Shown here one piece after another: positions 45,739 through 63,043 of a DNA stretch of 64,000 bases. The translations under genes and the position numbers were made by a program. Origin of the DNA: Chloroflexota bacterium (GTDB lineage Bacteria > Chloroflexota > Dehalococcoidia > JACPEP01); the NCBI GenBank assembly GCA_016183425.1, contig JACPEP010000007.1, positions 2,113 through 66,112 on the forward strand. The letters run 5' to 3'. Positions within the stretch are counted from its first letter, which is position 1. Each line of letters starts with the position of its first letter. The notes beneath the pieces were generated by a model. It had not been told where the DNA came from and ran no database searches. It was given only the letters and a program-made list of their open reading frames with translations.

Positions 45739-46506
45739 CTACAGCGATAAGGGGGAGGGCACCGTAGCTAGAAACATCGCAACGGCGCCGGCCAGGAACA
45801 GAACGCCAAAGGCCCGGCTCAGGGCCACCCCGCGAACGATAACCTTTTCGATGTAGAATATGAGGGCCAAGCCCAGCATCCATGCCAGGTTGGTGACTCC
45901 CACCCCGAACATGAGCAGCATTAAGGCCCAGCAGCAGCCCAAACAGAAAAGGCCGTGGCGCAGCCCCAGGGAGAGAGCGCCGGGCAGCCCGGGCCGCCAA
46001 TAACGCACCAGGAAGCCAATGGGCGATTGACATTGAGAGAGGCACGCCTCCTTGAGGGGGCTAAACTGGTAAGCCCCCGCCAGGAGCAACACTCCACCCC
46101 CGATGAATGGCGTTACCCTATCCAGGGGCTCTAAGGTCTCCACCAGCCAGTGCAGCACCAGGTCGCCGGCGAAGGCAGCCAGGCCAAAAGTACCCCAGAC
46201 CGCCAGGTAGCCGCCGATGAACAGGGCCATCATGAGGAAGAAAGCCCTCGGCGGTTGGGTCCCTGCTGCATGGGCAAAACGATCCAATACGGGCCAGACG
46301 GTGGGGAGCATCATCGCCGCCGACATCACTACCCAGGCAGCCACGAAGAGAGGAACGGCCACCGCCCAGGGCTGGGCCCGAGCCCCCAGTAGGGCGTGGT
46401 GGCCCAGTTGCTGCCCCCAGGAGGAGCCCAACGAGGCGTAGGCCACGGCAACCCAGGCGAGCCCCGTCAAAAGAATCAGAAAAGCGACAAGAAGTAGCCT
46501 GGTCAA
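45739..46506 (-). CDS. DUF2182 predicted metal-binding membrane protein
   Basis: MSAAMMLP, YQFSPLKEACLSQC, GLFCLGCCWALM. Confidence 0.88.
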   Translation of the reverse strand: MTRLLLVAFLILLTGLAWVAVAYASLGSSWGQQLGHHALLGARAQPWAVAVPLFVAAWVVMSAAMMLPTVWPVLDRFAHAAGTQPPRAFFLMMALFIGGYLAVWGTFGLAAFAGDLVLHWLVETLEPLDRVTPFIGGGVLLLAGAYQFSPLKEACLSQCQSPIGFLVRYWRPGLPGALSLGLRHGLFCLGCCWALMLLMFGVGVTNLAWMLGLALIFYIEKVIVRGVALSRAFGVLFLAGAVAMFLATVPSPLSL

Positions 46507-46585
46507 AAGTTACACACTTACACCAGACTTCCCTGGCCGGCCTGGCAAGGGAATGCCCCAGGCGGTGGCAATGGGCCTAAGGCAG

Positions 46586-47176
46586 CTATCCCTTCAATTC
46601 GAAGGGGCCGGTCCACATGCCGGAGCCGCTAAGGTCGAAGTTCATACCCTGGGCGTTGGCCTTGACCTTGGAGGATTTGCCGGCAGTGACATTGGGCAGC
46701 GGGTAGTTGGTATTGGAGACCTGGATTTCAGCCTTGCCCTGGAGATCTTTCAGCGTCTCGCCAGCGCCCTCCACCAAATCTCCCGCTTTGACCGACAGCT
46801 TGCCGGCCGCAAAGGTGATAGAGATAGGAGCGGTGGCCACGCCCTTGAAATCGCCGATGAGGGCAGCAATCTGGGCCGCGTCTCCCTTCATCTCGCCGGT
46901 GAAGATGCCTTGCAGGGCATCCCTCTGTTGCTTACTAGCCTGAGAATCCAGGATAAGGGCAGCCGTCCAGTTGCCCTTGCTCCAAATCCCGGGAAACTCC
47001 GAGGCCACAATGGCCTTGGTTCCAGCTAGACTCACTGCGTCGGCGTTGCCCTCCTGTATTTCAAAGACCATCAACCCTCGGCACCGGCCGCCCGTGGGGG
47101 CCTGGCCAAAGGCACAGGGACACGGGGCATTACAGGAGCACAGCTCTGTGGCCCGCCCGGCAATTCGGTAAGCCAT
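46586..47176 (-). CDS. DUF1326 protein
   Basis: ELCSCNAPCPC...PTGGRC; usual partner of DUF2182. Confidence 0.88.
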   Translation of the reverse strand: MAYRIAGRATELCSCNAPCPCAFGQAPTGGRCRGLMVFEIQEGNADAVSLAGTKAIVASEFPGIWSKGNWTAALILDSQASKQQRDALQGIFTGEMKGDAAQIAALIGDFKGVATAPISITFAAGKLSVKAGDLVEGAGETLKDLQGKAEIQVSNTNYPLPNVTAGKSSKVKANAQGMNFDLSGSGMWTGPFELKG

Positions 47177-47589
47177 TTGTTTCCCTCCTTCTCTAATTTC
47201 CCTCTAATTTCCCTGAAGGAGCAACCCGCCAGCACCAGGGCCATCAGGTTGGCACCTCCGTCGAGTGTCCGCCACCGTCCACTCACCCACTCCACGATAT
47301 CACGATCTTGTGTTACTAAATGTTAAGACAATTTTGTCATGAGAGTATAAACAAGCGGCCTTTGAATGTGACGAGTTTGTGAAAAAAATAAATGCGCTCC
47401 TCTGGACTCCCCATTGCTAAACAACCCTGTGGAAGCTCATTTACACACCTATTGACTGAAGCTCATTTCTTGTGGCAGATGAGCAACATCTTGTACCAGG
47501 CTCGCCCCGCTGTGAAGACTTTTCGGGCTTTATCGCGAAATGTGCGCAGGCCTTCTTCTCTATCAACCCAAAGGGTTCGGTCGGCAGTA

Positions 47590-48843
47590 CTAGATTGGCC
47601 TTTGGCCAAAAAGACCCAGTAATCCGACTCGGTTCATTCGCTCATGGATCCTGTCCGGCTCCATAACATCCAGTCCGACATCCAAGTATCGCCGATCCAC
47701 GGGCGATCCAGGGGGATAATCGCTAAGGCTATAGCCCTTCTTGATTTCCCATAAAAAAAACCCCATCATGGTTGTCTTGGGGAATGTTACTAGCTCAGTT
47801 ATTCCCAGGGCGGTTCTCGCTGCGTTGTGGCCGGCTAAATCTCCCGTATAGATACTTTCGACCAAAGATGAAAAGTCACCGCTTCTCAACCCGGAACAGA
47901 ACAGATTCGCCAGCCCCAACACGCGCATAGTTTCGTCATGGGGAGCCCCTGGACTAGTTTTTACACAATTGCCCGTCTGGGCCATAGGGCTTATTACATA
48001 GGCATCTTCGAAGCCGGGAAACTGGTGCAGGATGTCCATAGGAATGGTGGATACAAACAGTTTCACGAAGGGCATAAGGTAAATAAGCCGCTCACGCCCG
48101 AGATTGTTCTTGACCGGGCGGTCTTTGCGGGGCCAGTAGCTGGTGAAATCGTGGTTTTGCCAAGGTTCAGGAACCTGGTAGTAGAAGTAACCAGACTCCT
48201 CCTCTTGAATGCTCCTTAGAAGCCACGGTGCAATGCTGCTGGGGTGAATATAGGTACAAACATAGTAGCTAGCCGTTTTAGGAAGGTCCGGTACTCCCGC
48301 CGCTTCAGAAAGACCCACCCGGTCGCCGAAAACGGTACACTTCTGGCTGCAACCGACACAGCCCACTCCCCATTCTGCGCAAACTGGGATTCCTCCCGTG
48401 GAGCCGGTAGCGTCAACAAAGGCGTCTCCTTCCAGCCTGGCACCGTTCTCCAGCACTACGCGGTGGATTTTGTTTCCCTCCTTCTCCACGCCTACGACCC
48501 GACTTCTCAATATCACTTCAACCCCAGCTTTTTCTACTGTGGTCAGCATCGCTTTCTCGATTTTAGTGGTATCGAAGATGCAGCTTACTTGGTGCCCAAA
48601 CTCTCTTTGAGGAAAGATGCTTAAGCCCTCCAGGGCTTCTATGACCTCTTTACCGCCGCCATCGAGCAGTTTTGTTTCCATTCGGGCGACATATTGAACC
48701 AGATGGCCGGTCAGTGGTCCGGTGCCCGATAGGGTGTCCATGCGCTCCACCAGAACGCTCTCCAGGCCAGCTTTGGCGACGGCGATAGCGGCGCTGCATC
48801 CGGCAACGCCGCCACCGACCACGATGACCCTTTTTGCTCCCAT
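47590..48843 (-). CDS. GidA-like FAD-dependent oxidoreductase with Cys4 motif (paralog B2)
   Basis: VVGGGVAG, DATG, CAEWGVGCVGCSQKC, TGDLAGHNA. Confidence 0.82.
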   Translation of the reverse strand: MGAKRVIVVGGGVAGCSAAIAVAKAGLESVLVERMDTLSGTGPLTGHLVQYVARMETKLLDGGGKEVIEALEGLSIFPQREFGHQVSCIFDTTKIEKAMLTTVEKAGVEVILRSRVVGVEKEGNKIHRVVLENGARLEGDAFVDATGSTGGIPVCAEWGVGCVGCSQKCTVFGDRVGLSEAAGVPDLPKTASYYVCTYIHPSSIAPWLLRSIQEEESGYFYYQVPEPWQNHDFTSYWPRKDRPVKNNLGRERLIYLMPFVKLFVSTIPMDILHQFPGFEDAYVISPMAQTGNCVKTSPGAPHDETMRVLGLANLFCSGLRSGDFSSLVESIYTGDLAGHNAARTALGITELVTFPKTTMMGFFLWEIKKGYSLSDYPPGSPVDRRYLDVGLDVMEPDRIHERMNRVGLLGLFGQRPI

Positions 48844-48873
48844 GATACCCCCTAACCTATGTCGTCCGAGGGT

Positions 48874-50127
48874 TTAACTTAACGGTTTGCTGTAGAGACC
48901 GATCATGCCGCCATCGCCCAAACGAGCTTTGATCTTCCACATGTCGGTGGTAACGAGACCTTTCTCGTAATATCTTTGGTCTATCTTTCGGTCTGAAGGC
49001 CAATCGGAGGGCGTCATGCCGTTTTTGGCTTCGTTTATAAAGAACCCGGTTAGAGTTGAAGATGGCAGTTCCATGGGGCTCATTTTCAAGGCTTGCCGCG
49101 TCGCGTTGTACCCGGCCAGGTCTCCTGTGAAGAGCACTTCTACGAATCCCTGGATGTCTCCTGTTTTCAACCCAGCAGCGAAAAGATTCTCAAGCCCGCT
49201 CACCCTTAGGGTGTTATCTCGGGGCGCCACAGCCCCCATTCTTAAGGGTTGGCCCCCGCCGCCAACAAGGGGATTCACTATCCATGCGTTTTCAAAGCCC
49301 TGGATCTGCCTGATGAACTTTGTGGGAACGTTCAGCCAGGTTTTGGCAAAGGGCATATGGATTATTTGTATTGGCTTTGCCCCCAGCTTTCTGGTAACAG
49401 GGCGGCTGGGGTATCTCCACTCTTCTGTAAAGTCATACTGCTGGAGATGGTCAGGAACGTCGATATAGGTGTAGCCCGACGGGGACGTTTCTATCCGTTC
49501 GCGAAGCTCTGGTGAAAGGCTTTCAGTGGCAATGAGAACACAGGACATATAGCTGGGTCGTTCTTTTTTCTCGTCGGGAGCCTCCGCCGCTTCCGTGATG
49601 CTCACTCGGTCACCAAATAGGGGACACATAAGCATACAGAGGACGCAGCCCTGGCCGAGGCGCTCACATTCCTCAACGCCGCTCATTTGTCCCGTGGCAT
49701 CTACAAAGGCATCGCCATAGACCTGGGACCCATCCTGGAGCACTACCGAGACCACTTTCCTTTCTTTTACTGTTACCGACACCACCCGTTTCTGTAGCAG
49801 AATCTGAACTCCCGATTCCGTGAGCAGCTTGCGACATCCTTCAGGCACTTTGGTTACATCAAAGCAAACGCTTCCGGAGGGAACCCCCAGTTCAGGCCAC
49901 CGATGCAGGGCCAGGGATTCCAGCATCTGGATTATCTCCCCGGCGCCCCCATCCATCAACAGAGCTTCTTGACGAGCGATCCATCCGGATAGATGCCCCG
50001 TCCAGGGGGCCAGGCCAGACAGACGGTTCATTTTCTCAATCAGTGTGACCTCTACCCCGGCCTTGGCCGCCGTCAACGCCGCCGCGCAGCCACCGAAGCC
50101 GCCGCCAACAACAATCACCCTGGCCAT
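48874..50127 (-). CDS. GidA-like FAD-dependent oxidoreductase with Cys4 motif (paralog A2)
   Basis: VVGGGFGG, DATG, CERLGQGCVLCMLMC, TGDLAGYNA. Confidence 0.82.
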   Translation of the reverse strand: MARVIVVGGGFGGCAAALTAAKAGVEVTLIEKMNRLSGLAPWTGHLSGWIARQEALLMDGGAGEIIQMLESLALHRWPELGVPSGSVCFDVTKVPEGCRKLLTESGVQILLQKRVVSVTVKERKVVSVVLQDGSQVYGDAFVDATGQMSGVEECERLGQGCVLCMLMCPLFGDRVSITEAAEAPDEKKERPSYMSCVLIATESLSPELRERIETSPSGYTYIDVPDHLQQYDFTEEWRYPSRPVTRKLGAKPIQIIHMPFAKTWLNVPTKFIRQIQGFENAWIVNPLVGGGGQPLRMGAVAPRDNTLRVSGLENLFAAGLKTGDIQGFVEVLFTGDLAGYNATRQALKMSPMELPSSTLTGFFINEAKNGMTPSDWPSDRKIDQRYYEKGLVTTDMWKIKARLGDGGMIGLYSKPLS

Positions 50128-50158
50128 AGAGGTCTTTCAGACAAGAAGTCGGAAACCT

Positions 50159-50623
50159 TTACTTTGATTCAGGGGCCGCCTCGCTTAGGGGCACTATGTT
50201 TCCATCGGGGTCGTAGGCCAGGACATTGGCGCCGCCCCCAGGCCGCTTAGCAGGAGGGGCTACGAATCTAACGCCTTTCTTTGACAGCTCTTCATAAGCC
50301 GCGTCCACACTCTCGACCCTGAATATCATCCTCATGAACCCTATGTCCGTCAGGGTCCAGTTTTCTGGGCGCGGTTTCGAAGGCGGCGAAATAAACTGGA
50401 CTAGCTGAAGTTTCACGGGTGTGGTCTTGTCAACCAGGTTAGCACCCAGAAAGTGTAGATTGGACATGTTGAAGAGCTTTTCATGAAATCGAACGGATTC
50501 GAGACGATCCTTAGTGTCGAACTGGTCTACCACCTTCAGACCCAGCAGATCCCGATAAAAATGGAGCGACCTTTCTAGGTCTTGCACGCACACCACCGTC
50601 CAAGAATATCCCTCGACTTCCAT
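50159..50623 (-). CDS. VOC/glyoxalase family protein
   Basis: VQDLERSLHFYRDLLGL, YDPDGN; usual metal-ligand His/Glu positions look substituted. Confidence 0.8.
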   Translation of the reverse strand: MEVEGYSWTVVCVQDLERSLHFYRDLLGLKVVDQFDTKDRLESVRFHEKLFNMSNLHFLGANLVDKTTPVKLQLVQFISPPSKPRPENWTLTDIGFMRMIFRVESVDAAYEELSKKGVRFVAPPAKRPGGGANVLAYDPDGNIVPLSEAAPESK

Positions 50624-50659
50624 TGCTGAAGGACCTCCTTTCGTCGCTTCTCTGTCTAT

Positions 50660-52285
50660 CTACGCCGTTTTCCACACGCTCTCAAAGAACCAGCGGGGCA
50701 CTTCGATCCCGGGAACGTAGTTGCTCACTTGCTTGCGATAGGCCAACATAATGCTCTCCCAGACTACGGGAATGTTGTAGTAGACCTCTTCGATGATGCT
50801 CCGTTCCAACTGGTTATAGATTCGGCCCCGCTCCTCTTTGTCGTAGGTTTGTTCCCCTTTCTCCATGAGTTGTCTTAGTTCAGGGAAGTCAGCGGAAACA
50901 GCGGCAGCATAGGGTGCCTTGATGGGATGAAGATTGTAGGCCACATGCCAGGCGGGGTCCGGGCCGGTATTGGTACGGCTGAACCTCATCTTGTAGCGTC
51001 CTTGTTTGGATAGGTCCAAGAACTTGGCCCATTCGATATTCTGTATTTTTAGTTTCATCCCCACTTTCGCCACCTGAGCCTGGACCGCCTCCGCCATTTC
51101 CACGAGTTGGGGGTAGTTTGGGCTAGTAAGGGCTTCGATCTCGAGGCCATCGGGATAGCCGCCCTCAGCCAACTTCGCCTTAGCTTTTGCCGGATCGTAG
51201 GGATAGCCCTTGAGACTCGGGTCGTAGAACCAGTAGACGGGGCTGAACTGGCCATGGGCCATTGTATTCAGCCCCTGGAAGACGCTTTTTTGGATGGCTT
51301 CTTTATCGATAGCGTAGGCTAAAGCCTGCCGAACCGCCTTGTTATTAAAGGGTGGCTCCTTGCTATTAATAAAGATTGCCGAGATCCCCGCAGCCGGCTT
51401 GATGACCACCTCTATGTCTTGACTCCTCCTCAAATCTTCGATGAACTTCCCTTCAACTTCACTTAGGAAATCGATCTCTCCCGTCTTCAGCATGGTGGTT
51501 TGCACCACCGTGTCGGGTATGATCTTAGCCACCACCGAGTCCAGATAAGGTAACCCCTTTTTCCAGTACCCATCGAACCTCTTCATGGTGACGTGATCGT
51601 CTTGCAACCACTCCTGGTGCTGGAAGGGGCCCGTGCCCACGCCGTATTTGGTGAGGTCATTGTTGTATTTTTTTGCCGCTTCCGGAGACACCATGGCGCA
51701 CATGCTGTCATTGGCTACACCAGCCAAAAAACCTCCGTAGGGCCCTGTCAGGTTGTAACGGACGGTGTAGTCGTCTATCACCTCCATGCTTTTCACCGCT
51801 TGCTGGAGCCTGCTCTTGCGGTCAGCGAAGGCGGGGGTATCTATGATGCGTTGATAGTTGAACCTGACGACAGAGGCGTTGAAATCCACGCCATCGTGGA
51901 ACTGGATACTCTTGCGGAGCCTGAAGATGAATTTATCCGGCTCTGGTATTTCCCAGGACTCCGCCAACTGATCATTCACCGGATTGGCCTTGTTGTCCAG
52001 CCCAACCAGGGTGTTGTAGAGCTGGTTTCGTGCCATATTGTCGAAATTACCCCCCAGGCTCTTATGGGGTTCCTCGCCGATAGTGCCCTTGGAAGCGACC
52101 CTCAAGATGCCGCCATAAACCGGCCCTGCCTTGGCCGGAGTGGGTGGAGCCTTGGGTGCGGGAGCGCAGCCCGCCAAATAAAGGCCTGCCAAGCCCAAAG
52201 CGCCCGAAACTGCCGACCTTAGAGCCTGGCGACGGGATACCTGTTTAGAAAGAAGCCTACTCCAATAGTGACTTTGGCCTTCCAT
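50660..52285 (-). CDS. ABC family 5 solute-binding lipoprotein
   Basis: YW...SRRQAL...C leader, LAESWE, FHDG, GTGPF, GLPYLD, VRQAL. Confidence 0.9.
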   Translation of the reverse strand: MEGQSHYWSRLLSKQVSRRQALRSAVSGALGLAGLYLAGCAPAPKAPPTPAKAGPVYGGILRVASKGTIGEEPHKSLGGNFDNMARNQLYNTLVGLDNKANPVNDQLAESWEIPEPDKFIFRLRKSIQFHDGVDFNASVVRFNYQRIIDTPAFADRKSRLQQAVKSMEVIDDYTVRYNLTGPYGGFLAGVANDSMCAMVSPEAAKKYNNDLTKYGVGTGPFQHQEWLQDDHVTMKRFDGYWKKGLPYLDSVVAKIIPDTVVQTTMLKTGEIDFLSEVEGKFIEDLRRSQDIEVVIKPAAGISAIFINSKEPPFNNKAVRQALAYAIDKEAIQKSVFQGLNTMAHGQFSPVYWFYDPSLKGYPYDPAKAKAKLAEGGYPDGLEIEALTSPNYPQLVEMAEAVQAQVAKVGMKLKIQNIEWAKFLDLSKQGRYKMRFSRTNTGPDPAWHVAYNLHPIKAPYAAAVSADFPELRQLMEKGEQTYDKEERGRIYNQLERSIIEEVYYNIPVVWESIMLAYRKQVSNYVPGIEVPRWFFESVWKTA

Positions 52286-52363
52286 TTTTCCCCTCCCTCT
52301 TGCTTAAAAAGCTGCTTTCTTGATGTTATCGGGTCTTTTATTCTCGCCCATTGCCGAGCATCC

Positions 52364-53611
52364 TCACGCCAAACGTTTGGCGAAGATTCCCTCCATTCCA
52401 GCGGCTCTGACCCGCTCTTTTATTTTCTGGTAATCGGTGGTATCGAAGCCGGCATTTTTGTAGGTAGGATCGCTCAGGGGAGTGCCGCTCCACTCGTTAG
52501 GCGTCTGGCCCGTCTTCACTACCGACAGAAAATAACCCATCAGGGTGGAGATGGGCATCGGCAGGGGTGTCATACCCAAGGCCGTTCGAGCGGCGTTCCA
52601 ACCGGCCACGTCGCCGGCAAACATGGCTTCGATGAAGCCACTATAGCGACCGGCCCGAAGGCCAGCGGCAAAAAGGTTGGCCATTCCGGTTACCCGCAGA
52701 GTATCATCGTGGGAAGCGTAGAAGCCGGTGCCCACCGTTTGTCCCTCGGCATCGAGAGGCTGCATCATCCAGGCATTTTCAAACCCGGGGATCCGTTGCA
52801 GCCACTTCAAGGGCAGGTTGAGCTTCGTCTTGGCGAAGGGAACGTGGACCACATTGACCAAAGTTCCTTTGATCTTTGCGGTTACCGGCCGATCGGGGCG
52901 GCGCCACTCTTTGGTAAAGTCCATACTCAACAGGTCTTCTGGGATGGGAAAGTAGGAATAGCCACTCTCTTCGTCTTCGATTTTTTGGCGCAAATCCGGT
53001 GAGAGGCTCTCCATGGCGATGAGGCTCATGGGGAAATAGTTCCAGCGATCCTCCTGGTCCGGGACATCCACCAGCGCCGAGAGGCTGATACGGTCTCCGA
53101 AAAGGGGGCAGTTTAGGAGACATAACGCGCAACCTTGGCCCAGACGGTCGCACCATTCCACGCCGCCGGTACGACCGGTGGCGTCCACGAAGGCATCGCC
53201 CTCGATTCGAGTCCCGTCTTCGGTGATAACGGCCCTCACCTTGTTTTCTGACCTGTCGATCTGGGTAACTCTGCTTTTAAGCCTGAACTTTATGCCCGAC
53301 TTTTCAATCAGCTTTGCTATGGCGTTGGCGATCCTGGTTACATCGAAGGTTATGTTGCCGTCTTTCACCCCGAACTCGGTAGTTCTATGAATGGATAGGC
53401 TTTCCATCACCGCGACTATATCAGCGGTGCCGCTTTCCATGAGCCTAGTTTCAGTCCGGGATACCCAGGTCAGTATCTGGCCGGTCCACGGGGCGAGGCC
53501 GGACAAGAAATCCATTCTTTCTACGATCTCCACCTGGACTCCGGCTTTCCGAGCCGTCAAGGCGGCGGTGCATCCCCCCAAGCCCCCTCCGATAACAACC
53601 ACTTTTGCCAT
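52364..53611 (-). CDS. GidA-like FAD-dependent oxidoreductase with Cys4 motif (paralog B1)
   Basis: VIGGGLGG, DATG, CDRLGQGCALCLLNC, AGDVAGWNA. Confidence 0.82.
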   Translation of the reverse strand: MAKVVVIGGGLGGCTAALTARKAGVQVEIVERMDFLSGLAPWTGQILTWVSRTETRLMESGTADIVAVMESLSIHRTTEFGVKDGNITFDVTRIANAIAKLIEKSGIKFRLKSRVTQIDRSENKVRAVITEDGTRIEGDAFVDATGRTGGVEWCDRLGQGCALCLLNCPLFGDRISLSALVDVPDQEDRWNYFPMSLIAMESLSPDLRQKIEDEESGYSYFPIPEDLLSMDFTKEWRRPDRPVTAKIKGTLVNVVHVPFAKTKLNLPLKWLQRIPGFENAWMMQPLDAEGQTVGTGFYASHDDTLRVTGMANLFAAGLRAGRYSGFIEAMFAGDVAGWNAARTALGMTPLPMPISTLMGYFLSVVKTGQTPNEWSGTPLSDPTYKNAGFDTTDYQKIKERVRAAGMEGIFAKRLA

Positions 53612-53638
53612 CACTTTGCCTCTTTTCTATTCAAGAAT

Positions 53639-54889
53639 CTAGCTCAACGGCTTCTGATAGATTCCCATCATACCCGCTTCCTTGATCCGTTCCTTAATAG
53701 TGTTTAGGTCAGTGGAGACCAAACCTTGTTCATGGTATTTAGGGTCTATCTTGCGGTCTCGGGGCCAGTCCGAGGGGGTCATGCCATCTCTTATTTCGGC
53801 GATAAAGAAGCCGATGAGTGTCTTGGGCGAAAGCACAATGGGTTCTTTGCCCAGGGCGACCCTGGTGGCATTGTATCCTGCCAAATCAGCGGTGAACATA
53901 ACCTCCACAAAGCCGGCGATGTGGCCCGTCTTGAGGCCAGCCACAAAAAGATTTTCAAATCCCTTCACCCGTAGGCTATTCTCTCGAGGGGCAACCGCTC
54001 CCATGCGCAGGGGCTGGCCCGTGCCGCCGGCCAATGGGTTCACCAGCCAGGCATTCTCAAAACCAGGCAGCCTCCTCAAATAGTTCAAAGGGATGTTAGC
54101 ATAGGTTTTGGCGAAGGGTATGTGAATTATCTGGATTACTTTTCCCAGGTGGCGGGTAACCGGACGCTCGGGGTGAGGCCACTGACCGGTGAAGTCTATG
54201 TCCTGGAACTCCTGGGGAACCGGGAGATAAAAATACCCAGATTCTTCCGCCTCTATCTTTTTACGTAGGTCCGGGGAGAAACTCTCCATGGCGATGAGAG
54301 AGCAAGACATATAGCTAGGGCTACCCCGCTTTTCGTCAGCCACGCCCGCCTTTGCCGTAATACTGATTCGGCTCCCGAAGATAGGACACTGCACCATGCA
54401 AAGAACGCACCCCTGGCCGTACTGCTCACACTCCTCTATGGTGCTGATCTGGCCCGTGGCGTCAACGAAGGCATCCCCTTCTATCCGAGAGCCATCTTCC
54501 AAAACTATTGTTTCGACGCGCCTGTCTCTCGTCTCAACGTCGATGGCTCGGCTCCGCAGCCTTACTTTGACGCCAGCCTCTTCTAGCAGGTGGCGCATTC
54601 CCTCGGCGAGCCTCGTTACATCGAAAACGATGCTCCCACCGGGGACGCCCATCTCGTAGTAGCGATGGATGGCCAAGGAGTCCAAAAGATTTAAGATCTG
54701 GGCGCCCCCGCCCCCGGTTAGTAGCACCTCTTGTCGGGCGATCCAGGTGAGAAGCTGCCCCGTCCACGGACCCAAACCGGAAAGCTGATCCATCTTTTCG
54801 ATAAGAACAACTTCCATTCCGGCCTGGCGCGCCGTAAGCGCTGCCGCACAGCCCGCAAAACCTCCCCCCACCACCACGACTTGCCGCAT
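53639..54889 (-). CDS. GidA-like FAD-dependent oxidoreductase with Cys4 motif (paralog A1)
   Basis: VVGGGFAG, DATG, CEQYGQGCVLCMVQC, TADLAGYNA. Confidence 0.82.
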   Translation of the reverse strand: MRQVVVVGGGFAGCAAALTARQAGMEVVLIEKMDQLSGLGPWTGQLLTWIARQEVLLTGGGGAQILNLLDSLAIHRYYEMGVPGGSIVFDVTRLAEGMRHLLEEAGVKVRLRSRAIDVETRDRRVETIVLEDGSRIEGDAFVDATGQISTIEECEQYGQGCVLCMVQCPIFGSRISITAKAGVADEKRGSPSYMSCSLIAMESFSPDLRKKIEAEESGYFYLPVPQEFQDIDFTGQWPHPERPVTRHLGKVIQIIHIPFAKTYANIPLNYLRRLPGFENAWLVNPLAGGTGQPLRMGAVAPRENSLRVKGFENLFVAGLKTGHIAGFVEVMFTADLAGYNATRVALGKEPIVLSPKTLIGFFIAEIRDGMTPSDWPRDRKIDPKYHEQGLVSTDLNTIKERIKEAGMMGIYQKPLS

Positions 54890-54970
54890 ATTATAACTCG
54901 CCGAAAGACTCACCAAGCTACGAAAGGTGCCTCTTCAAAGCATTCCTGAGCCGATTTTGTCTTACCGGGC

Positions 54971-56605
54971 TTATTTTACCTTCCACACCCCCTCGAAGTA
55001 CCAGCGATTGTCCGTCATGGCGGGAACATAACCTTGAACCTTGGTGCTGTGGGCCACATAGTTAGCTCCATGCATAATGGGAAGCATCCAGTAGACGTCC
55101 TCCACCATCTTCCGATTCAGCTCGTTGTAGATGCGGCCCCGCTCCGTGGCGTCGTAGGTGGCATCGGCTTTTTTCATCAGGGCGTCGAACTCGGGATTGG
55201 GAACCATTTGGTTGTTATAAGGGGCGCTGCTCAACGTATCGTAAATGGAGTAATAGTAGGGATCGACGCCGGTACTGGTGCGACCAATGAGGGCCTGGAA
55301 ATCGCCTTTCTTCCAACTGTCCAAAAAGACGGCATATTCCACTGTCTTAAGCTTAATCTTTATGCCCACTTTTGCTAGCTGACCCTGGACTGCCTCACCC
55401 AGAGGGATGAGGTCGGGCACGCCACCGCTGACCAAAGCCTCCACCTCGAAACCGTCGGGAGAGCCCCCCTCCTTGAGCTTGGCCCTGGCCTTGTCCAGGT
55501 CGAAGCGGTACATCTGCTCAATGGCGGGGTCGTAGAACCAATAGCTGGGGCTATAGTGGCCGTAAGCCACTGGAGCCAGCCCCAAATACACTCCCTGCTG
55601 TATGGCCTCTCGGTCTATGGCGTAGGCAGCCGCCTGGCGCAGCGCCTTATTGTTAAAAGGCGCTTTCTTCGAGTTTATCGAAAGGCCTCTGAGAACCGGG
55701 ACGGGCCCCCCGGGCACCTTGATGTTAGGATCGTTCTTTAGCTCCAAGACGTCTTTCGACTGCATTTGGGCCATGAAATCGATCTCCCCGGTACGGAGCA
55801 TGGTTATGGACACAGTTGGATCTGGGATCACCTTTACATACAGCTCATCCAGGTAGGGCACCCCGCTCTTCCAGTACCCGGCAAATTTTCGTAACGTGAT
55901 GTGATCATCCTGGAACCATTCGCTGTGCTGGAAAGATCCCGTCCCCACCCCGTTCCGTTTCAAATCGTTGTTGAACTTTTTTACCGCCTCTGGGGATACC
56001 GGTGAGACGAAGTGGTCGCCGGCCACGATGGCCAAGAACCCCGCTGAAGGCGCCGGCAGTTTATAGGCCACGGTATATTCGTCAACCGGCTCCACAGACT
56101 TGACGGACTGGCCTACAAAAGGAGCGCTGGTGGCCTTTGTGGCGGGATCCATTATCCGCTCATAGTTGAACTTCATGAGCTGGGCATTCAAAGGGACCCC
56201 ATCGTGGAGTTTCACCCCTTTACGAAGTTTAAAAACCACCCGGTCTGGCTCCGGGATCTCCCACGACTCTGCCAGGGATGGAACGTGCTTGCCTTTAGGA
56301 TCGATCCAGATGAGGTTGTCATACATATTGTTCCGGACTACGCCATCCAGGTTGCCACCCAACTGGAGAAGAGGGTCCTCCGACAAAGTGGCTGTAGAAG
56401 CAATCCGCAACCTGCCTCCCATAACAGGCTGAAGCGACGGGGTGGGGGAACCAGGGACGGCGGCCGGTTTTGTAGGGGCCGGTTTGGGCGCTGCCGGAGC
56501 GCAACCCAGGAGCGCCACCGTGCCTACACCAGCCAGTGTGCCTCGAATGAGACGCCGGCGAGACAGACGGCGCCGCAACAGGGTGTCCCAATAGTTCTCT
56601 TTCAT
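54971..56605 (-). CDS. ABC family 5 solute-binding lipoprotein
   Basis: Real start MKENYW...SRRRLI...C; LAESWE, GTGSF, GVPYLD. Confidence 0.9.
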   Translation of the reverse strand: MKENYWDTLLRRRLSRRRLIRGTLAGVGTVALLGCAPAAPKPAPTKPAAVPGSPTPSLQPVMGGRLRIASTATLSEDPLLQLGGNLDGVVRNNMYDNLIWIDPKGKHVPSLAESWEIPEPDRVVFKLRKGVKLHDGVPLNAQLMKFNYERIMDPATKATSAPFVGQSVKSVEPVDEYTVAYKLPAPSAGFLAIVAGDHFVSPVSPEAVKKFNNDLKRNGVGTGSFQHSEWFQDDHITLRKFAGYWKSGVPYLDELYVKVIPDPTVSITMLRTGEIDFMAQMQSKDVLELKNDPNIKVPGGPVPVLRGLSINSKKAPFNNKALRQAAAYAIDREAIQQGVYLGLAPVAYGHYSPSYWFYDPAIEQMYRFDLDKARAKLKEGGSPDGFEVEALVSGGVPDLIPLGEAVQGQLAKVGIKIKLKTVEYAVFLDSWKKGDFQALIGRTSTGVDPYYYSIYDTLSSAPYNNQMVPNPEFDALMKKADATYDATERGRIYNELNRKMVEDVYWMLPIMHGANYVAHSTKVQGYVPAMTDNRWYFEGVWKVK

Positions 56606-56622
56606 TTGTCCTTTTCCTCTTT

Positions 56623-57525
56623 CTAGAGACGTTGCACTAACTCTACGAAGTTTCCCTCCGGGTCTCGGCAGATGCAAGCCTTCCAGGATGGACCCGGGAC
56701 CGGTGGCGAGACGAAGCTGACCCCTTGGCTCACCAATTCCCGATAAACTGCTTCCAGGTCCGCCACAACGAGACCGGGCCACTTTACGCCTATATCCCAG
56801 AGCCTGAGGGGCTCTGCCAGGGGCCTTCCCACTGGATACTCCCATTTGGCGATGTCGATACGTCCGTTGCGAGCCTCCAGCTGAGTGTCGGCGAAAAGGA
56901 ACCAGAAGTCTACCTTCGGTCTGGGCAAGGAAAACCAGGTCATCAGGGCCTTCTGCCGCTCTTCTGGGGGTTCTGGTGGGCCGGGGGGGCCCGGGGAGGC
57001 GGTGGCCGGGTTGAGCCCCAGGGTGTCCCGGTAAAAGGCGAATACTCTTTCTTGGTCTATGGTGTTGATGTTCAGGTGGTTGTTGTTGGTGAGCTCCACG
57101 AAGGTGCCGTCGGGGTCTCGACAGAAGGCGACTACGTGGGTGGGGCTGCGACGAAGGGGTGGCGACAGAAAGCGGTGGTAGAGGGAGGAAGGCTGGTTGG
57201 CGTAGAGGGTATCCAGGCCTCGAATGGGGATGCCTATCCAGGTGAAGGCCTGGTCGCAGGCATCCATACTGAAGGGTCTCCCCGGGGGGAAATGCCATTG
57301 AATGAGCTCGAGAAGCCGTTTCGTTGGCTCCCGGGGAGGCTCGGTTTCGAGAAGAACGCTCCTAAGCTGCACTCCCTCCGCTCCGTAGAGTCGATCGTAT
57401 AGCTCTCCGGCTCGTTCTTTATCAGATCTTACTTTCAAACCCAGATAGTCTCGGTAGAACGCCAGGGATTTATCCATATCGCTCACCGAAAGGGCGGTGT
57501 GGTTAAACTCCTGTATCCTCACCAT
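56623..57525 (-). CDS. Two-domain VOC/glyoxalase family protein
   Basis: NHTALSVSDMDKSLAFY, RDPDGTFVEL, HLNIN, RDPEGNFVEL; start refined to MVRIQ. Confidence 0.82.
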   Translation of the reverse strand: MVRIQEFNHTALSVSDMDKSLAFYRDYLGLKVRSDKERAGELYDRLYGAEGVQLRSVLLETEPPREPTKRLLELIQWHFPPGRPFSMDACDQAFTWIGIPIRGLDTLYANQPSSLYHRFLSPPLRRSPTHVVAFCRDPDGTFVELTNNNHLNINTIDQERVFAFYRDTLGLNPATASPGPPGPPEPPEERQKALMTWFSLPRPKVDFWFLFADTQLEARNGRIDIAKWEYPVGRPLAEPLRLWDIGVKWPGLVVADLEAVYRELVSQGVSFVSPPVPGPSWKACICRDPEGNFVELVQRL

Positions 57526-57658
57526 TAGAGCCTCCTTTCCTGCCTCCGTTGCTGCCTCACTGCGGCCGTTTGTAAAGGGTAATAATAGCATAGCCCCCCC
57601 CTCTGTCAAGGCCCTGTACCCCTCCGGCACAGTAGTGACGCCGGCCTCCCTCGGGAGG

Positions 57659-58492
57659 TCACACCGGGCCGGGTATGGGGTGGCGTGAGCAGAAGTCTGC
57701 CAGGGCCTCGGCCATACCACGTGCCGCAGCTTGGTTCTCAAGATGCAGGAAGTGCGTAGCGCCGGGGAGGACAAACCCTTCGGCGTGCGGCAGCCAGTCC
57801 AGCAGGAGTCGGTACGTCTCCTCGAACCGGGGAGAGAGGGCGACGCTCTCGCTGCCGAGCACGGCGAGGACTGGTTGGGTGATACGTCGTGCCTCCGCCT
57901 CGCCGAAGCTCCAGTCCAGCCATCCTGGTAGTTCCAGCTCGAACGAGGTCGCCGCATCTGTCACCGCCTGCACGAAGGCCCCCGGCAGGATCCGGTCGAG
58001 GACGGCGCGGTACCCCGGCCAACGTGCCTGCAGGAAATCGTCTACGATAACCGCTGCGGGTCCCTCCCGGTACCGTTGTTGGCCGCGCACCAGCGAGTCT
58101 CGGTAGGACTGAGCGCTGGCTCCGACTATCAGCGCCGGCTCTAGCAAGGCCAGCGAGTGGACGACCTCCGGGTCGCCCAGCGCGAGCTGGAGGGCGATGC
58201 AGCCGCCTAAGGAGTGCCCGATGATATGCGCCTGCTCCACGTCTAGATGACGCAGCAGCGCACGGCAATCAGTAGCCTGCCGAGCGATGCTAACGGTACC
58301 GGGCTTGTGGCTGCTGCCCATGTAGCCCCGGCGGCGGTAGGTGATAAGCCGGTAACCATGGGCCAAGCTGGGCTCGGCCAACAGGGGCCGGAAAGAGTCC
58401 GCGATGAGCGCACCGTGGATAAAAACCACCGGCTCACCTGAGCCGGAGACTTCGTACTCTAGCGTGATGCCGTTGACAACTGCCTTTTCCAC
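57659..58492 (-). CDS. Alpha/beta hydrolase
   Basis: VFIHG, GHSLGG nucleophile elbow, GATH. Confidence 0.9.
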   Translation of the reverse strand: MEKAVVNGITLEYEVSGSGEPVVFIHGALIADSFRPLLAEPSLAHGYRLITYRRRGYMGSSHKPGTVSIARQATDCRALLRHLDVEQAHIIGHSLGGCIALQLALGDPEVVHSLALLEPALIVGASAQSYRDSLVRGQQRYREGPAAVIVDDFLQARWPGYRAVLDRILPGAFVQAVTDAATSFELELPGWLDWSFGEAEARRITQPVLAVLGSESVALSPRFEETYRLLLDWLPHAEGFVLPGATHFLHLENQAAARGMAEALADFCSRHPIPGPV

Positions 58493-58791
58493 ATGTCCTC
58501 CTCATTGGCCGATAAAACAAGCCACCGGGGACTACCATCATCGGAACCTAGTCCTTGCTGGCCCGACGTCGGGAGGGTAACCCATCTGCGGATTATGATA
58601 CCTGTCCCGGTGATGGCCAAGGAGATAACGAGATCGCCCCACACGTAGAGGTCACCCCACCCGCTGATCTCGTCGGTGAGGATGGCGACCAGGCCGAATC
58701 CGATAGCTGCGGCGAGGGCAGTTACTATCAACGCCCAAGGTCGCCCTATCACCAGCCCGACAATCAATCCCAAAAGAGGCAGCAGGTTCAT
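58459..58791 (-). CDS. Small hypothetical membrane protein
   Basis: Three hydrophobic segments. Confidence 0.5.
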   Translation of the reverse strand: MNLLPLLGLIVGLVIGRPWALIVTALAAAIGFGLVAILTDEISGWGDLYVWGDLVISLAITGTGIIIRRWVTLPTSGQQGLGSDDGSPRWLVLSANEEDMWKRQLSTASR

Positions 58792-59823: not shown

Positions 59824-60210
59824 GTAGGGTGGGTGGAGCGCAGCGGAACCCACCTTCACTTTTTGTGGTGGGTTTCGTTTCCTCCAGAGGCGGACAGGTC
59901 ACTTCACCCAACCTACGATCTGGCAACAACCGTGTTTAGCACCGTGTGCGGCTATGGTGCAAAGAGGGGCCGCCTGTCTTTGACATTCGTGGTGACAAGG
60001 TAAGGGAATCCTTCATTAGGATAACGCTGAAAATCCGGCATCCTGTCCCCTCAGGAACATTCGGCAGGTCGGGTTAGGAAACCCGACCTACTTAACTTAA
60101 CTATCAAGTAGGGCAGGTTTCCCAACCTGCTCTGCCCAGTTTGTAGAGTGGGGGGAACCCCCCTTCACTGTTTGTGGTGGGTTTCGTTTCACTTCACCCA
60201 CCCTACGGCT
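59824..60210. repeat. Cluster of GTAG REP-like repeats
   Basis: Long copies at 59824-59916 and 60137-60210, plus a doublet at 60064-60091 and 60108-60135. Confidence 0.78.
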
Positions 60211-61069
60211 ACCCCTCCTCCCCTATCCTCCGGTACATGCCGGGCACCCGCCACCTGGGGAGGTAAAAGAGGCTTTGGGCCTCTTTCTCGATCTCTTCCG
60301 CCACCGCTATGGTAGCCACTGCCAGCCCCTCCGCCTCGTCCCCCGTCTCGGCCACGATGTGGCCCCGGGGGTCGACGATGAGGCTGTGGCCGTAGTAGTC
60401 CGTCTCTCCTTGGTCGCAGAGGCCCACCTGGTTAGAGGCGATGAACCAACGGCGGTTCTCCAGGGCCCGAGTGCGGCTGAAAAGGTCGTAGAAGTAGCTT
60501 GTCGTCTTGCCCCGGGCGGTGGGCATGACCAGGATTTGGGCGCCGGCCAGGGTCAGCTCCCGCGTTGACTCCGGGAAGGCCTGGTCCCAGCAGATGAGGA
60601 GCCCCACCCGGCCCAGGGGGGTGCTGACCACCTCCCAGGACCGGCCGGGGCGGAATATGTTCCGCTCGTCTCCAGGGAGGTGCACCTTGCGGTAGACGGC
60701 GGCCAACCCCTCCGGCCCCACCATCACCGCCGAGTTGAAGAGGGTAGGTACATGGTTGGCCGGCCCCACCTCCGTCATGCCAAAGACGATATACATCCCC
60801 TTTTCGCGGGCTTGCTCTGTGAGAAGCTGGGTGCTCTCTCCCGGCACCGGCTCGGCGTTGCGGTGATGATACTCCAACTCCTCCGGGGTGAACTGGTGGT
60901 CCAGGCTGTAGAGATACCCCTGGAGGGACTGCTCCGGAAAGACCACCAGGCGAGCCCCCTTCTCCGCCGCCTCCTCCAGGAACTCCAGATACCGTTTCAG
61001 GTTCCTCCCTTTGTCGTGGACAACTCGCATGGCCGCGGCGGCCACTGTGACCGGCCCTTTCTCCGCCAT
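60209..61069 (-). CDS. Carbon-nitrogen hydrolase (nitrilase superfamily)
   Basis: E-K-C triad in FPEQ, YRKVHL, ICWD; GHSLIVDP. Confidence 0.92.
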   Translation of the reverse strand: MAEKGPVTVAAAAMRVVHDKGRNLKRYLEFLEEAAEKGARLVVFPEQSLQGYLYSLDHQFTPEELEYHHRNAEPVPGESTQLLTEQAREKGMYIVFGMTEVGPANHVPTLFNSAVMVGPEGLAAVYRKVHLPGDERNIFRPGRSWEVVSTPLGRVGLLICWDQAFPESTRELTLAGAQILVMPTARGKTTSYFYDLFSRTRALENRRWFIASNQVGLCDQGETDYYGHSLIVDPRGHIVAETGDEAEGLAVATIAVAEEIEKEAQSLFYLPRWRVPGMYRRIGEEG

Positions 61070-61336: not shown

Positions 61337-63043
61337 ATGGCACAGGAAAACAACTACTGGACGGAGGTTTTTCACAAAAGAATATCCCGTCGGCGAGCGC
61401 TAGGGGTGGCTGCCCGGGCCAGTCTGGGCGTAGCGGGAGCGGCCCTTTTAGGGTGCGCCGCCACCCCTGCCCCCACGCCCACTAAGGCCCTGGCAGTCTC
61501 ACCGGCCGCCGCTACCCCCACTCTCAGACCAGCTGTTACTTCTACGCCGGTGGCAAAAACCTTAGATAAGCTTGTGATAGCCCATACCAGGGACATACCC
61601 AGTCTTGACCCGCAAGTACAGTCGGGAAATATCTCACAAGGCGGATACTGGGATATGCTCACCGACACCCTGGTGACTTTGGCTCGGGAGGAAGAGAGCC
61701 TCAAACTGGTGCCCGGTTTAGCCACCAGTTGGAAGGTCATGGAGGACGACCCCAGGACCTGGGAGTTCAAGCTGAGGCAGGGGGTAAAGTTCCACAACGG
61801 GGAAGAGTTTGACGCCGACACGGTGGTCTATAACATCGATCGCAACAAAGACCCGGTGCTCAAGCTTAACATGATGCCATATGTTAAGGACGCCACCGCC
61901 AAGGCGATAGATAAGTATACCGCCCGCCTGACCTGGCCTCAGCCCTATCCCCTGGCGGCAGCTCGGCTCGTGGGATTCCCCATCGTCCCCCGGAAGTACA
62001 TCCAGGAGAACGGGGAGAAGATCATGAGTGAAAAGCCCATTGGTACCGGTTACTACAAGTTTGTCAAATGGGTCAAGGACGACTATGTGGAGATGGAGTG
62101 GGCGGGGAGCCACTGGCGAGGGAAGACGCCGACGGCGAAGACAGTAATCCAGAAGGTGATACCGGAGATCGCTCCTCGTATCGCCGCTCTCCAGACAGGG
62201 GCAGCGGACGTCATCTTCGATATACCGCCCGACCTGGTGTCTGATGTGAGCAAAGATCCCAATGTGGGTATTTACAAGTCCACCAATACGGCCGTCCCTA
62301 ATTTTGGAATCAGCCAGATGAAGGAGGGGCCCTTGCGGGATAAGCGGGTGCGGCTGGCCTTGAACCTGGCCATAGACAGGGAGACCATTGTTAAGACCAT
62401 GTTCGGCGGCTTCTATCAGGTGGTACCAGATACGGTGGTACCGCTTGCCTTTGGCTACAATGCTGATTTGAAGCCATATCCCTACGATGCCAAGAAGGCC
62501 AAGGATCTTTTGGCAGAGGCGGGCTATCCCAATGGTTTTGATACGGTGATCGACATGGGCAAGGTGGCCTATCCGCGATATAAGGAATATACCCAGGCTA
62601 TTGCCGAGTACTGGCGGCAGATAGGGGTCAAGGCCACCATCAGACCACAGGAAGGGGCGGCCTCGTGGAGTGACTGGGGCATGGAGGTTCGGACGGCTGG
62701 CAAGGGGCCTGAGGGAGTATACCTGCAAGGCTATTGTGATTGCCTACTGGATGCGGATGATACGTGGCGCTACTACACAACCTGGGATCCCAAAGCTGGT
62801 TCGGGGACCTACTCTTGGATCGAGGATGCCAAGCTGGATAAGATGGTCGCCGATAGTCGTAGCACCATGGATCTGGAGAAAAGGAAGAAACTGCTCCAGG
62901 AGATCCAGGCCTACAACCATGAGCAGGCCTATGCTATCCCTCTGTGGGTCGCGACCTTCAACTGGGGCTACGCTAAGAAAAGGATCAAGAATCTTTACGC
63001 CCGACTCTTCCGTGTGTTCGTCTGGGATGTCGAGCTGGCCTAG
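61337..63043 (+). CDS. ABC family 5 solute-binding lipoprotein (paralog of 41786..43465)
   Basis: YW...SRRRAL...C leader, PGLATSW, VKFHNGEEFDAD, EGPLRDKRVR. Confidence 0.92.
   Translation: MAQENNYWTEVFHKRISRRRALGVAARASLGVAGAALLGCAATPAPTPTKALAVSPAAATPTLRPAVTSTPVAKTLDKLVIAHTRDIPSLDPQVQSGNISQGGYWDMLTDTLVTLAREEESLKLVPGLATSWKVMEDDPRTWEFKLRQGVKFHNGEEFDADTVVYNIDRNKDPVLKLNMMPYVKDATAKAIDKYTARLTWPQPYPLAAARLVGFPIVPRKYIQENGEKIMSEKPIGTGYYKFVKWVKDDYVEMEWAGSHWRGKTPTAKTVIQKVIPEIAPRIAALQTGAADVIFDIPPDLVSDVSKDPNVGIYKSTNTAVPNFGISQMKEGPLRDKRVRLALNLAIDRETIVKTMFGGFYQVVPDTVVPLAFGYNADLKPYPYDAKKAKDLLAEAGYPNGFDTVIDMGKVAYPRYKEYTQAIAEYWRQIGVKATIRPQEGAASWSDWGMEVRTAGKGPEGVYLQGYCDCLLDADDTWRYYTTWDPKAGSGTYSWIEDAKLDKMVADSRSTMDLEKRKKLLQEIQAYNHEQAYAIPLWVATFNWGYAKKRIKNLYARLFRVFVWDVELA

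Follow-up and report, generated by a model that had tools for sequence, protein, structure and literature searches.

A set of eight genes on the minus strand (47590–57525) was analyzed in a window of 64,000 nucleotides from contig JACPEP010000007.1 of a Chloroflexota bacterium (Dehalococcoidia; assembly GCA_016183425.1); "the window" means this whole stretch. The genes encode four flavoproteins of about 416 amino acids (aa) with a four-cysteine (Cys) motif, two solute-binding proteins (SBPs) and two vicinal-oxygen-chelate (VOC) proteins. They almost certainly form one operon, which is one locus of a genome-wide radiation. Three points were of interest: a branch of GidA/TrmFO flavoproteins with an iron-sulfur (Fe-S) motif, its 25-copy expansion in a small genome, and its statistical tie to SBP genes that far outnumber permeases. 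We proposed that the operon of this uncultured anaerobic groundwater bacterium is one "uptake protein plus Fe-S flavoenzyme" set of the radiation and works by the mechanism set out below, a reading to which we give about an even chance.

The run of open reading frames (ORFs) that the earlier note had described was present. In the ORF listing and its translation, the eight ORFs formed one co-oriented set in the order VOC1-SBP1-A1-B1-SBP2-VOC2-A2-B2, with inter-gene spacers of 17–81 bp.

Family Placement of the Flavoproteins

The four flavoproteins (A1, B1, A2, and B2) matched the Pfam families GIDA (PF01134; 64–82.4 bits, gathering threshold 22.1) and FAD_oxidored (PF12831; 62.8–78.5 bits, gathering threshold 27). 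The best stretches reached only about residues 4–150, and there was a short TrmFO-like stretch in the C-terminal part. In the four-way alignment, A1 was 63% identical to A2, 50% to B1 and 41% to B2. The motifs that had been read in all four proteins (GxGxxG, DATG, Cx6Cx2Cx3C, FGxR, and AGxNA) proved invariant, the last three at C154/C161/C164/C168, F171-G172-x-R174 and A337-G338-x-N340-A341. The flavoproteins are predicted to be cytoplasmic, because their sequence opens with the Rossmann motif and no signal peptide precedes it.

None of the eight operon proteins scored above the cut-off of any NCBIfam model. In the protein scan, the best models for the flavoproteins were geranylgeranyl-reductase and TrmFO fragments (35–47 bits; TrmFO itself 35–41 bits). 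Against MnmG/GidA (TIGR00136, cut-off 524.85 bits), the best of the 25 paralogs of the host genome reached 22.5 bits and matched only model positions 2–152. Against TrmFO (TIGR00137, cut-off 428.65 bits), the best paralog reached 34.5 bits at model positions ~289–385. A true MnmG (806.9 bits) was located elsewhere in the host genome (G000:C33:60753-62642; G000 denotes this genome and C-numbers its contigs). Since the scores were far under both cut-offs and the true MnmG lay elsewhere, the flavoproteins were considered to be neither MnmG nor TrmFO, in agreement with the earlier note.

The top PDB sequence match of A2 was TrmFO (3g5q; E = 8.3e-09, residues 269–364), followed by GidA. A2 was modeled with AlphaFold2 from a 46-sequence alignment (mean pLDDT 92.9). 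In a Foldseek search, the model was nearest to GidA/MnmG (TMq 0.58–0.68) and then to TrmFO (TMq 0.44–0.47), and no solved structure was closer than GidA/MnmG. The middle region (residues 140–262), which holds the Cys motif, had no Pfam match, Fer4-type families included, even at E = 10. We assign the four proteins to a branch of the GidA/TrmFO flavoprotein superfamily that has no name and is restricted to anaerobes.

The phmmer alignment placed His308 of TrmFO 3g5q opposite Q in A2, and the catalytic Cys positions of TrmFO were outside the aligned stretches. We take His308 to be the folate-stacking histidine, in a loop lying over the flavin. At this position the family consensus in the 46-sequence alignment read GNSxR. 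The segments most variable among the 25 paralogs were A2 residues 291–300, which align to the TrmFO loop around His308, 371–390, 241–260, and 191–200. Three of these four segments contained motifs shared by A1 and A2 (PSYMSC, GQPLRMGAVAPR, and GMTPSDWP). A1 and A2 probably keep one specificity, and B1 and B2 probably differ.

The Four-Cysteine Motif

The Cx6Cx2Cx3C motif was present in all 25 host-genome paralogs and in 93 of 99 database matches; the six without it were the weakest matches. The four Cys were invariant across the 46-sequence alignment. The family pattern was C-x3-G-x-G-C-x2-C-x3-C followed by [PHT]-x-F-G-x-R, immediately after DATG; in the family consensus, the position after the last Cys was [PH].

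The [4Fe-4S] loop of the endonuclease III/MutY type reads Cys-X6-Cys-X2-Cys-X5-Cys. It, too, has four Cys close together in one short stretch, the first two spacings (X6 and X2) agree, and the Cys of that family bind a single cubane. However, the last spacing is X5 there and X3 here, the two folds are not related, and the cluster of that family is no flavin partner; the loop serves only as an analogy for a motif able to bind one [4Fe-4S]. Because the Cys follow DATG, the stretch resembles the loop of endonuclease III and the hosts are anaerobic, we infer a single cubane that passes electrons to or from flavin adenine dinucleotide (FAD). The motif is thus a putative [4Fe-4S] site, and cluster binding is considered quite probable.

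Distribution of the Family

A search of 5.8 billion proteins gave the 99 matches to the family, and all but one of the named ones were called "FAD-dependent" oxidoreductases or "hypothetical protein." Among 1.84 billion representatives clustered at 50% identity, a profile search found 181 family clusters at E ≤ 1e-30, many of them fragments. A pattern scan detected at least 598 family loci among species-representative genomes. The titles of 80 of these loci included Thermotogae, Synergistaceae, many Clostridia and Negativicutes, Thermodesulfobacteriota, Anaerolineae, and Bathyarchaeia; judging from the record titles, we take these host groups to be anaerobes. The family was rare in the class, with a match at E ≤ 1e-20 in 7 of 301 sampled genomes, host included, the nearest of those being 32–39% identical.

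The ESM Atlas yielded just clusters labeled "FAD-dependent oxidoreductase" without a name of their own, followed by GidA and TrmFO. No paper naming or describing this flavoprotein family was found in the literature searched. The family had been presented as uncharacterized, and in the libraries and literature searched no function, name or structure was found for any member.

Radiation in the Host Genome

The host genome (2.70 Mb, 52 contigs, 95% complete; the window is on contig C31) contained 25 full-length paralogs that were 39–100% identical to A2, none with internal stops. These were distributed over 13 loci: six loci had one copy each, C17 had two with an SBP gene between them, C15, C30, and C33 had a pair each, this window had four, and C26 had six in tandem. 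The C26 tandem (G000:C26:7612-15343) directly follows an SBP_bac_5 gene, with a fused molybdenum (Mo)-hydroxylase gene and a Dabb-domain gene upstream.

A quick maximum-likelihood tree (LG+G4, SH-aLRT support only) was built from the 25 paralogs and 12 outside sequences. All 25 paralogs and one metagenomic protein (P0008) formed a single clade with a long stem (support 100). A1 and A2 were sisters (100) and thus the closest pair, as previously noticed, and B1 and B2 were likewise the more divergent ones: B1 was inside the C26 array clade (99), and B2 grouped with C35_18849 and C17_54913 (100).

The earlier note had proposed that an A+B unit was copied together with its SBP and VOC partners. 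Duplication as one block was not supported by the trees or the gene order. B1 and B2 were not sisters, VOC1 and VOC2 were 27–29% identical and differed in architecture (two domains in 300 aa vs. a single domain in 154 aa), and the two halves were ordered differently (VOC-SBP-A-B vs. SBP-VOC-A-B). Nor was a local event of two modules supported, as the locus is one of 13 holding the 25 paralogs. The appearance of a local duplication would apply to the A genes only, perhaps also to the SBP genes, and not to the B or VOC genes. By their tree positions, A1 and A2 are interpreted as recent duplicates, and B1 and B2 as arrivals from other branches of the radiation.

A decaying copy may exist in another genome of the class: in G011, the fourth tandem flavoenzyme copy (G011:C199:6291-7567, locus L124) was split in two ORFs (residues 1–132 and 130–414), by frameshift or decay.

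Binding Proteins, Permeases, and VOC Proteins

SBP1 and SBP2 belonged to SBP_bac_5 (PF00496), with 288.4 and 292.2 bits, respectively, vs. a gathering threshold of 32.4. Neither was an equivalog of GsiB, DppA, NikA, or CntA; the best of these models was GsiB, with 228.4 bits for SBP2 and 179.5 bits for SBP1 vs. 594. The nearest solved relatives of SBP2 were GsiB/YliB (E = 6.7e-60), an unnamed SBP, the agropinic-acid binder AgaA, HbpA, and DppA. Given relatives of the GsiB/AgaA/DppA type, SBP2 plausibly binds a small ligand that is peptide-like or an N-substituted amino acid. The resemblance of the two SBPs was also upheld: they were 49% identical and, in a tree of 58 SBPs, formed an unresolved trio with C11_9526 (support 85) within a six-member clade (100). 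Read by eye rather than by a predictor, the N-terminus of SBP1 showed an RR motif and a lipobox-like LLGC, and that of SBP2 a twin-arginine-like motif (SRRQALR) and an LAGC lipobox, each followed by a Pro/Ala-rich linker. These putative signals fit exported lipoproteins of a monoderm cell.

The host genome contained 58 SBP_bac_5 genes vs. 13 matches to the permease domain (BPD_transp_1). The eight strongest permease matches lay side by side in four Dpp-type pairs, of which two were on C15 and one each on C39 and C52. There was no BPD_transp_1 match on contig C31, and the locus therein did not amount to a complete ABC importer. An SBP_bac_5 gene was located within 500 bp at 8 of the 13 enzyme loci (random mean 1.25; no permutation of 2000 reached 8) and within 2 kb at 10 of the 13 (random mean 1.70; 0/2000). 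In two other Dehalococcoidia (G011 and G008), the enzyme abutted SBP_bac_1/6/8 genes in five of ten contigs; no SBP_bac_5 or VOC gene was found near it in those ten contigs.

Other SBP_bac_5 genes were also seen. Two orphan ones flank the operon region (41786–43465, minus strand; 61337–63043, plus strand) and belong to the other major SBP clade. A second pairing of binding protein and oxidoreductase involved the xanthine-dehydrogenase (XDH) family, of which the host genome had 31 MoCoBD_1 matches (29 whole genes and 2 contig-end fragments). The XDH-family genes scanned were ~920-aa fusions with a [2Fe-2S] domain, and one copy lies in the window near 8297–9034 (G000:C31:10409-11146). SBP_bac_5 directly adjoined 10 of the 29 XDH-family genes (random mean 3.5; 3 of 2000 permutations). 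Ahead of a flavoenzyme copy on C39, the upstream stretch (L122:69-5219) had three ADI/amidinotransferase-like genes interspersed among SBP_bac_5 genes.

VOC1 (85.2 bits in two stretches) and VOC2 (71.5 bits) belonged to the VOC family PF00903 (gathering threshold 20.6). Neither reached the glyoxalase I cut-off of 120 bits (TIGR00068; VOC1 46.5, VOC2 36.3 bits). Genome-wide there were 34 Glyoxalase-domain matches, and a tandem array of seven VOC genes was detected by tblastn at G000:C46:359-6303.

Gene Neighborhoods

At 34 loci of other phyla, the genes within two positions of the enzyme were compared, which gave 136 neighbor proteins. A gene of 456–482 aa without a solid Pfam match adjoined the enzyme in 15 of the 34 loci. 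Five of these proteins, when compared, were 39–68% identical to each other and had 9–12 transmembrane (TM)-like segments, so the neighbor was taken as a putative secondary permease. RidA/YjgF was found at 7 loci, GntR/FCD regulators at 7, thiamine-diphosphate-dependent or 2-oxoacid:ferredoxin enzymes at 8, a B12-binding protein of ~610 aa at 5, and SBP_bac_5 at 1 (another Chloroflexi). The earlier note had tied the enzymes to binding and VOC proteins alike. The tie to uptake was conserved, by way of SBP_bac_5 here, SBP_bac_1/6/8 in the two Dehalococcoidia and the secondary permease elsewhere; the tie to VOC was not (0/136 neighbors).

Within the host genome, an aldehyde:ferredoxin oxidoreductase (AOR) gene adjoined the enzyme at C21, as it did in G011, and two RidA genes and an IorA-like gene were near enzyme copies. 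Near the enzyme in G011/G008 there were UbiD (4 genes), AOR, fumarate-reductase-type flavoproteins and a DHODH-ferredoxin fusion. An XDH-family domain was within 5 kb at 3 of the 13 enzyme loci (random mean 1.64; 436/2000 permutations). The transporter and GntR/FCD regulator beside the enzyme pointed to catabolism of an imported carboxylate, and RidA, the 2-oxoacid enzymes and AOR beside it fit C-N dehydrogenation. It is fairly likely that the flavoproteins are catabolic oxidoreductases for an imported solute.

Several further associations were observed. In Firmicutes, six loci (L110, L107, L039, L058, L064, and L072) shared a cluster of RidA, a ~487-aa protein without family, the flavoenzyme and a ~457-aa permease, to which a B12-binding ~608-aa protein and a KamB-like reactivase were added; DUF6917 and GntR/FCD were often present. 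TIR-domain proteins were encoded a few kb from single flavoenzyme copies in the host genome (L115:7453-8217, minus strand, on C21; L116:4492-5364, plus strand, on C24). On C26 (L118:7693-10383), adjacent genes of 441 and 450 aa, which were 73% identical and had neither a Pfam match nor TM-like segments, were flanked by flavoenzyme C26_59316 on one side and an SBP gene on the other, and two VOC genes lay upstream.

Proposed Mechanism and Alternatives

Here, a mechanism was proposed to account for the gene content of the operon. SBP1 and SBP2, of the DppA/GsiB/AgaA type, would be exported as membrane-tethered lipoproteins and capture small solutes for delivery to a Dpp-type ABC permease, of which the genome has just four sets, all at other loci. 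Once in the cytoplasm, these compounds would be acted on by the four flavoproteins. The Cx6Cx2Cx3C site of the middle domain probably holds a [4Fe-4S] cluster that would relay electrons between FAD and a ferredoxin-type partner. The reaction may be C-N bond dehydrogenation of a carboxylated amine or amino-acid-like substrate, whose imine would hydrolyze to a 2-oxo acid or an aldehyde; this chemistry is put forward tentatively, as the likeliest of those considered. The VOC proteins might isomerize or detoxify the reactive carbonyl product. On a wider scale, the flavoproteins may be a new anaerobic Fe-S flavoenzyme class for the first catabolic redox step in the use of small nitrogen compounds taken up by the cell. 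Their 25 copies would each have a specificity of their own and be coupled to one of the 58 SBPs, most of them orphans, which would share four permeases. Together with the SBP-linked Mo-hydroxylases, this would make up a modular "capture protein + first enzyme" scavenging of the groundwater dissolved-organic pool, a picture that we regard as possible and still doubtful.

Some of the observations weigh against this proposal. For ten enzymes with an adjacent SBP, the pairwise distances of the enzymes and those of the SBPs did not correlate (r = 0.09, also 0.087; reached by 2449 of 10000 permutations). The enzyme and SBP trees were thus not congruent, which suggested that the pairings were reshuffled and not copied as fixed cassettes. 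A VOC gene was within 500 bp at only 2 of the 13 enzyme loci (random mean 0.35; 89/2000 permutations), and none was among the neighbors at the 34 loci of other phyla. With the VOC linkage weak here and absent elsewhere, the role given to the VOC proteins is a guess. The reaction was deduced solely from neighbors, because no family member with a known function was found in the libraries or literature searched. The UbiD, fused Mo-hydroxylase, cupin and cyclase neighbors fit a reductive or aromatic-ring role equally well. In addition, the flanking gene calls were our own longest-ORF calls.

The main rival to C-N dehydrogenation is that the enzymes are reductases, which would carry out ferredoxin-driven C=C or ring reduction of (hetero)aromatic or unsaturated acids downstream of Mo-hydroxylases, UbiD and aldehyde oxidoreductases. 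The 6-hydroxynicotinate reductase of nicotinate fermentation is a model for such an enzyme. Fused XDH-family Mo-hydroxylase genes were near the enzyme at C24, C26, C30, and C39 and at the Chloroflexi locus L091, and the 29 whole XDH-family genes of the host genome, the UbiD (4), AOR and DHODH-ferredoxin fusion genes that adjoin the enzyme in G011 and G008, and the cupin, cyclase, Amidohydro_2, isochorismatase and Dabb neighbors are all in keeping with it. However, the enzyme-XDH proximity was at chance level, the recurrent neighbors in other phyla (RidA, GntR/FCD, permease, and 2-oxoacid enzymes) were not ring-cleavage genes, and the nearest solved relatives of SBP2 bind peptides, glutathione or an opine; we consider reduction unlikely. 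Folate-linked one-carbon transfer is a very unlikely alternative, in which the enzymes would be, for example, N-demethylases that give methylene to tetrahydrofolate (THF) and reuse the flavin-methylene chemistry of TrmFO/MnmG. Their C-terminal region aligns to a part of TrmFO including the folate-side loop, a GCV_T-SHMT fusion (L040) and a 5-formyl-THF cyclo-ligase gene (L069) adjoined the enzyme, and a MTHFR C-terminal-like gene was near the C33 copies. Yet these were just 3 folate-related neighbors among roughly 45 loci, the Fe-S motif has no TrmFO counterpart, and His308, whose stacking role is presumed, is replaced by Q in A2 and by GNSxR in the family. The fold and the weak sequence similarity to GidA/TrmFO could also speak for RNA-modifying paralogs of MnmG or TrmFO. 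This is hardly credible in view of the scores and the separate MnmG given above, of 417 residues vs. the 616 positions of the MnmG model, of which only positions 2–152 are matched, and of 25 copies beside binding proteins and permeases.

A further alternative concerns the assembly of the enzymes, namely that the Fe-S flavoenzyme is an obligate heterodimer of A and B, which was copied en bloc with SBP and VOC and then diverged. Two A-B pairs are side by side here, pairs occur at C15, C30, and C33, and, between the two halves, the A proteins are sisters and the SBPs are closely related. When A2 and B2 were co-folded, the score was 0.41, which gives weak support, and the best of 3 controls scored 0.00; the runs agreed in at least 94% of contacts, with a partner pLDDT of at least 87. 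In the calibration, 116 of 157 solved complexes passed the mark, as did 2 of 215 mismatched pairs; at scores of 0.60 or below, only 18 of the 157 solved complexes passed, plus both passing mismatches. Because our own alignments went into the co-fold, these counts apply to it only roughly. MnmG homodimers have been solved, and close paralogs can stand in for one another. The co-fold is thus compatible with dimerization, does not separate an A/B heterodimer from an MnmG-like homodimer, and may reflect memory of MnmG structures. As a family trait, an obligate heterodimer was not upheld. Six of the 13 loci had a single copy, the C17 pair was split by an SBP gene, one locus had six copies in tandem, and outside this lineage (34 loci) single genes were the rule, with examples beside a permease. 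B1 and B2 also have their closest kin at other loci, the VOC proteins differ in sequence and domain number, and gene order differs between the halves. We consider an obligate heterodimer copied en bloc to be improbable.

Features of the Operon Region

The positions of the operon genes, their Cys motifs and a promoter-like site are given in Table 1. The promoter-like site is ~55 bp upstream of the VOC1 ATG, which is preceded by an AAGGAGG Shine-Dalgarno sequence; both are consensus matches only.

Table 1. Features of the flavoprotein operon, with positions in the window.
Feature	Position	Strand	Basis
Promoter-like site TTGACA-16 nt-TATTAT, 11/12 consensus, TG ahead of -10	57582..57609	-	Consensus match only
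VOC1, two-domain VOC (glyoxalase-fold) protein, 300 aa	56623..57525	-	Pfam Glyoxalase
SBP1, SBP_bac_5 binding protein, 544 aa	54971..56605	-	Pfam SBP_bac_5, N-terminal sequence
A1, GidA/TrmFO-like flavoprotein with four-Cys motif, 416 aa	53639..54889	-	Pfam, alignment, tree
A1 Cx6Cx2Cx3C motif CEQYGQGCVLCMVQC	54386..54430	-	Sequence
B1, paralogous flavoprotein, 416 aa; closest kin are the C26 tandem-array copies	52364..53614	-	Pfam, alignment, tree
B1 Cx6Cx2Cx3C motif CDRLGQGCALCLLNC	53108..53152	-	Sequence
SBP2, SBP_bac_5 binding protein, 541 aa	50660..52285	-	Pfam SBP_bac_5, PDB sequence search
VOC2, single-domain VOC protein, 154 aa	50159..50623	-	Pfam Glyoxalase, PDB sequence search
A2, flavoprotein, 417 aa, sister to A1	48874..50127	-	Pfam, alignment, AlphaFold2 model, tree
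A2 Cx6Cx2Cx3C motif CERLGQGCVLCMLMC	49624..49668	-	Sequence
B2, flavoprotein, 417 aa; closest kin C35_18849 (62%) and C17_54913	47590..48843	-	Pfam, alignment, tree
B2 Cx6Cx2Cx3C motif CAEWGVGCVGCSQKC	48337..48381	-	Sequence

The region was also recovered from other assemblies. In that of a second sample of the same groundwater study (X4), all 30 bins of 47000–58600 were covered, in pieces. A single X1 contig, possibly from the source sample, carried the whole stretch intact with 7 differences. One X4 contig joined 53197 to 54408 and skipped 1210 bases. Its short side was 23 letters only, and it was rejected as a deletion; it probably stems from a paralog or another strain.

Just upstream of the promoter-like site, there was an alpha/beta hydrolase gene (57659–58492, minus strand), and farther upstream on the same strand as the operon a carbon-nitrogen hydrolase gene (60209–61069, minus strand); both may share the catabolic theme. 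Downstream, a DUF1326 gene and a PpoB2-type copper-chaperone gene (45739–47176, minus strand) were ~410 bp from B2.

Comparison with Known Systems

The enzyme family is spread across anaerobes of many phyla and yet came up without a name in the libraries and literature searched. Its 25 diverged copies with candidate ligand-capturing neighbors offer a direct route to the substrates, by way of the SBP ligands. A small 2.7-Mb subsurface bacterium may widen its diet in this manner, by multiplying SBPs and first-step oxidoreductases while keeping few membrane transporters.

MnmG (GidA; PDB 3cp8, 2zxi, 3ces) makes the carboxymethylaminomethyl group of tRNA U34, and TrmFO is the folate/FAD-dependent tRNA m5U54 methyltransferase. 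The A and B proteins share with MnmG, the best structural match of the A2 model, an FAD-binding GR2-type fold with GxGxxG and DATG. However, they are shorter, the four-Cys region replaces the middle domain, and their context is catabolic and not translational. TrmFO (PDB 3g5q) is closer in length, is the top PDB sequence match of A2 and has the AGxNA-type C-terminal helix region in common with it; it has no Fe-S motif, and its His308 is not kept in the A2 alignment.

The same flavoenzyme family is found in an uncharacterized B12 aminomutase-like operon of anaerobes, together with RidA, a 487-aa protein, a 457-aa permease, and B12-binding 608-aa and KamB-like proteins; KamDE/KamB are presumably its known relatives. 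In contrast, no B12 enzyme, RidA or secondary permease is encoded in the window, an ABC binding protein takes the place of the uptake partner, and this genome carries the enzyme 25-fold.

The Bug/TctC proteins of Bordetella are a radiation of orphan SBPs with few membrane components. The disproportion is similar here, with 58 SBP genes vs. four permease pairs. The present SBPs are of the SBP_bac_5 family, however, and their genes are tied to particular oxidoreductase genes.

Large sets of paralogous flavin and molybdopterin reductases have been described in gut Eggerthellaceae and others, where they are reported to be respiratory-like and to use respiratory electron acceptors (bioRxiv 10.1101/2022.12.26.521950). 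Both cases comprise tens of paralogous oxidoreductases per genome, which are read as many small-molecule specificities. The flavoproteins of this operon are without a signal peptide and would be fed by binding proteins.

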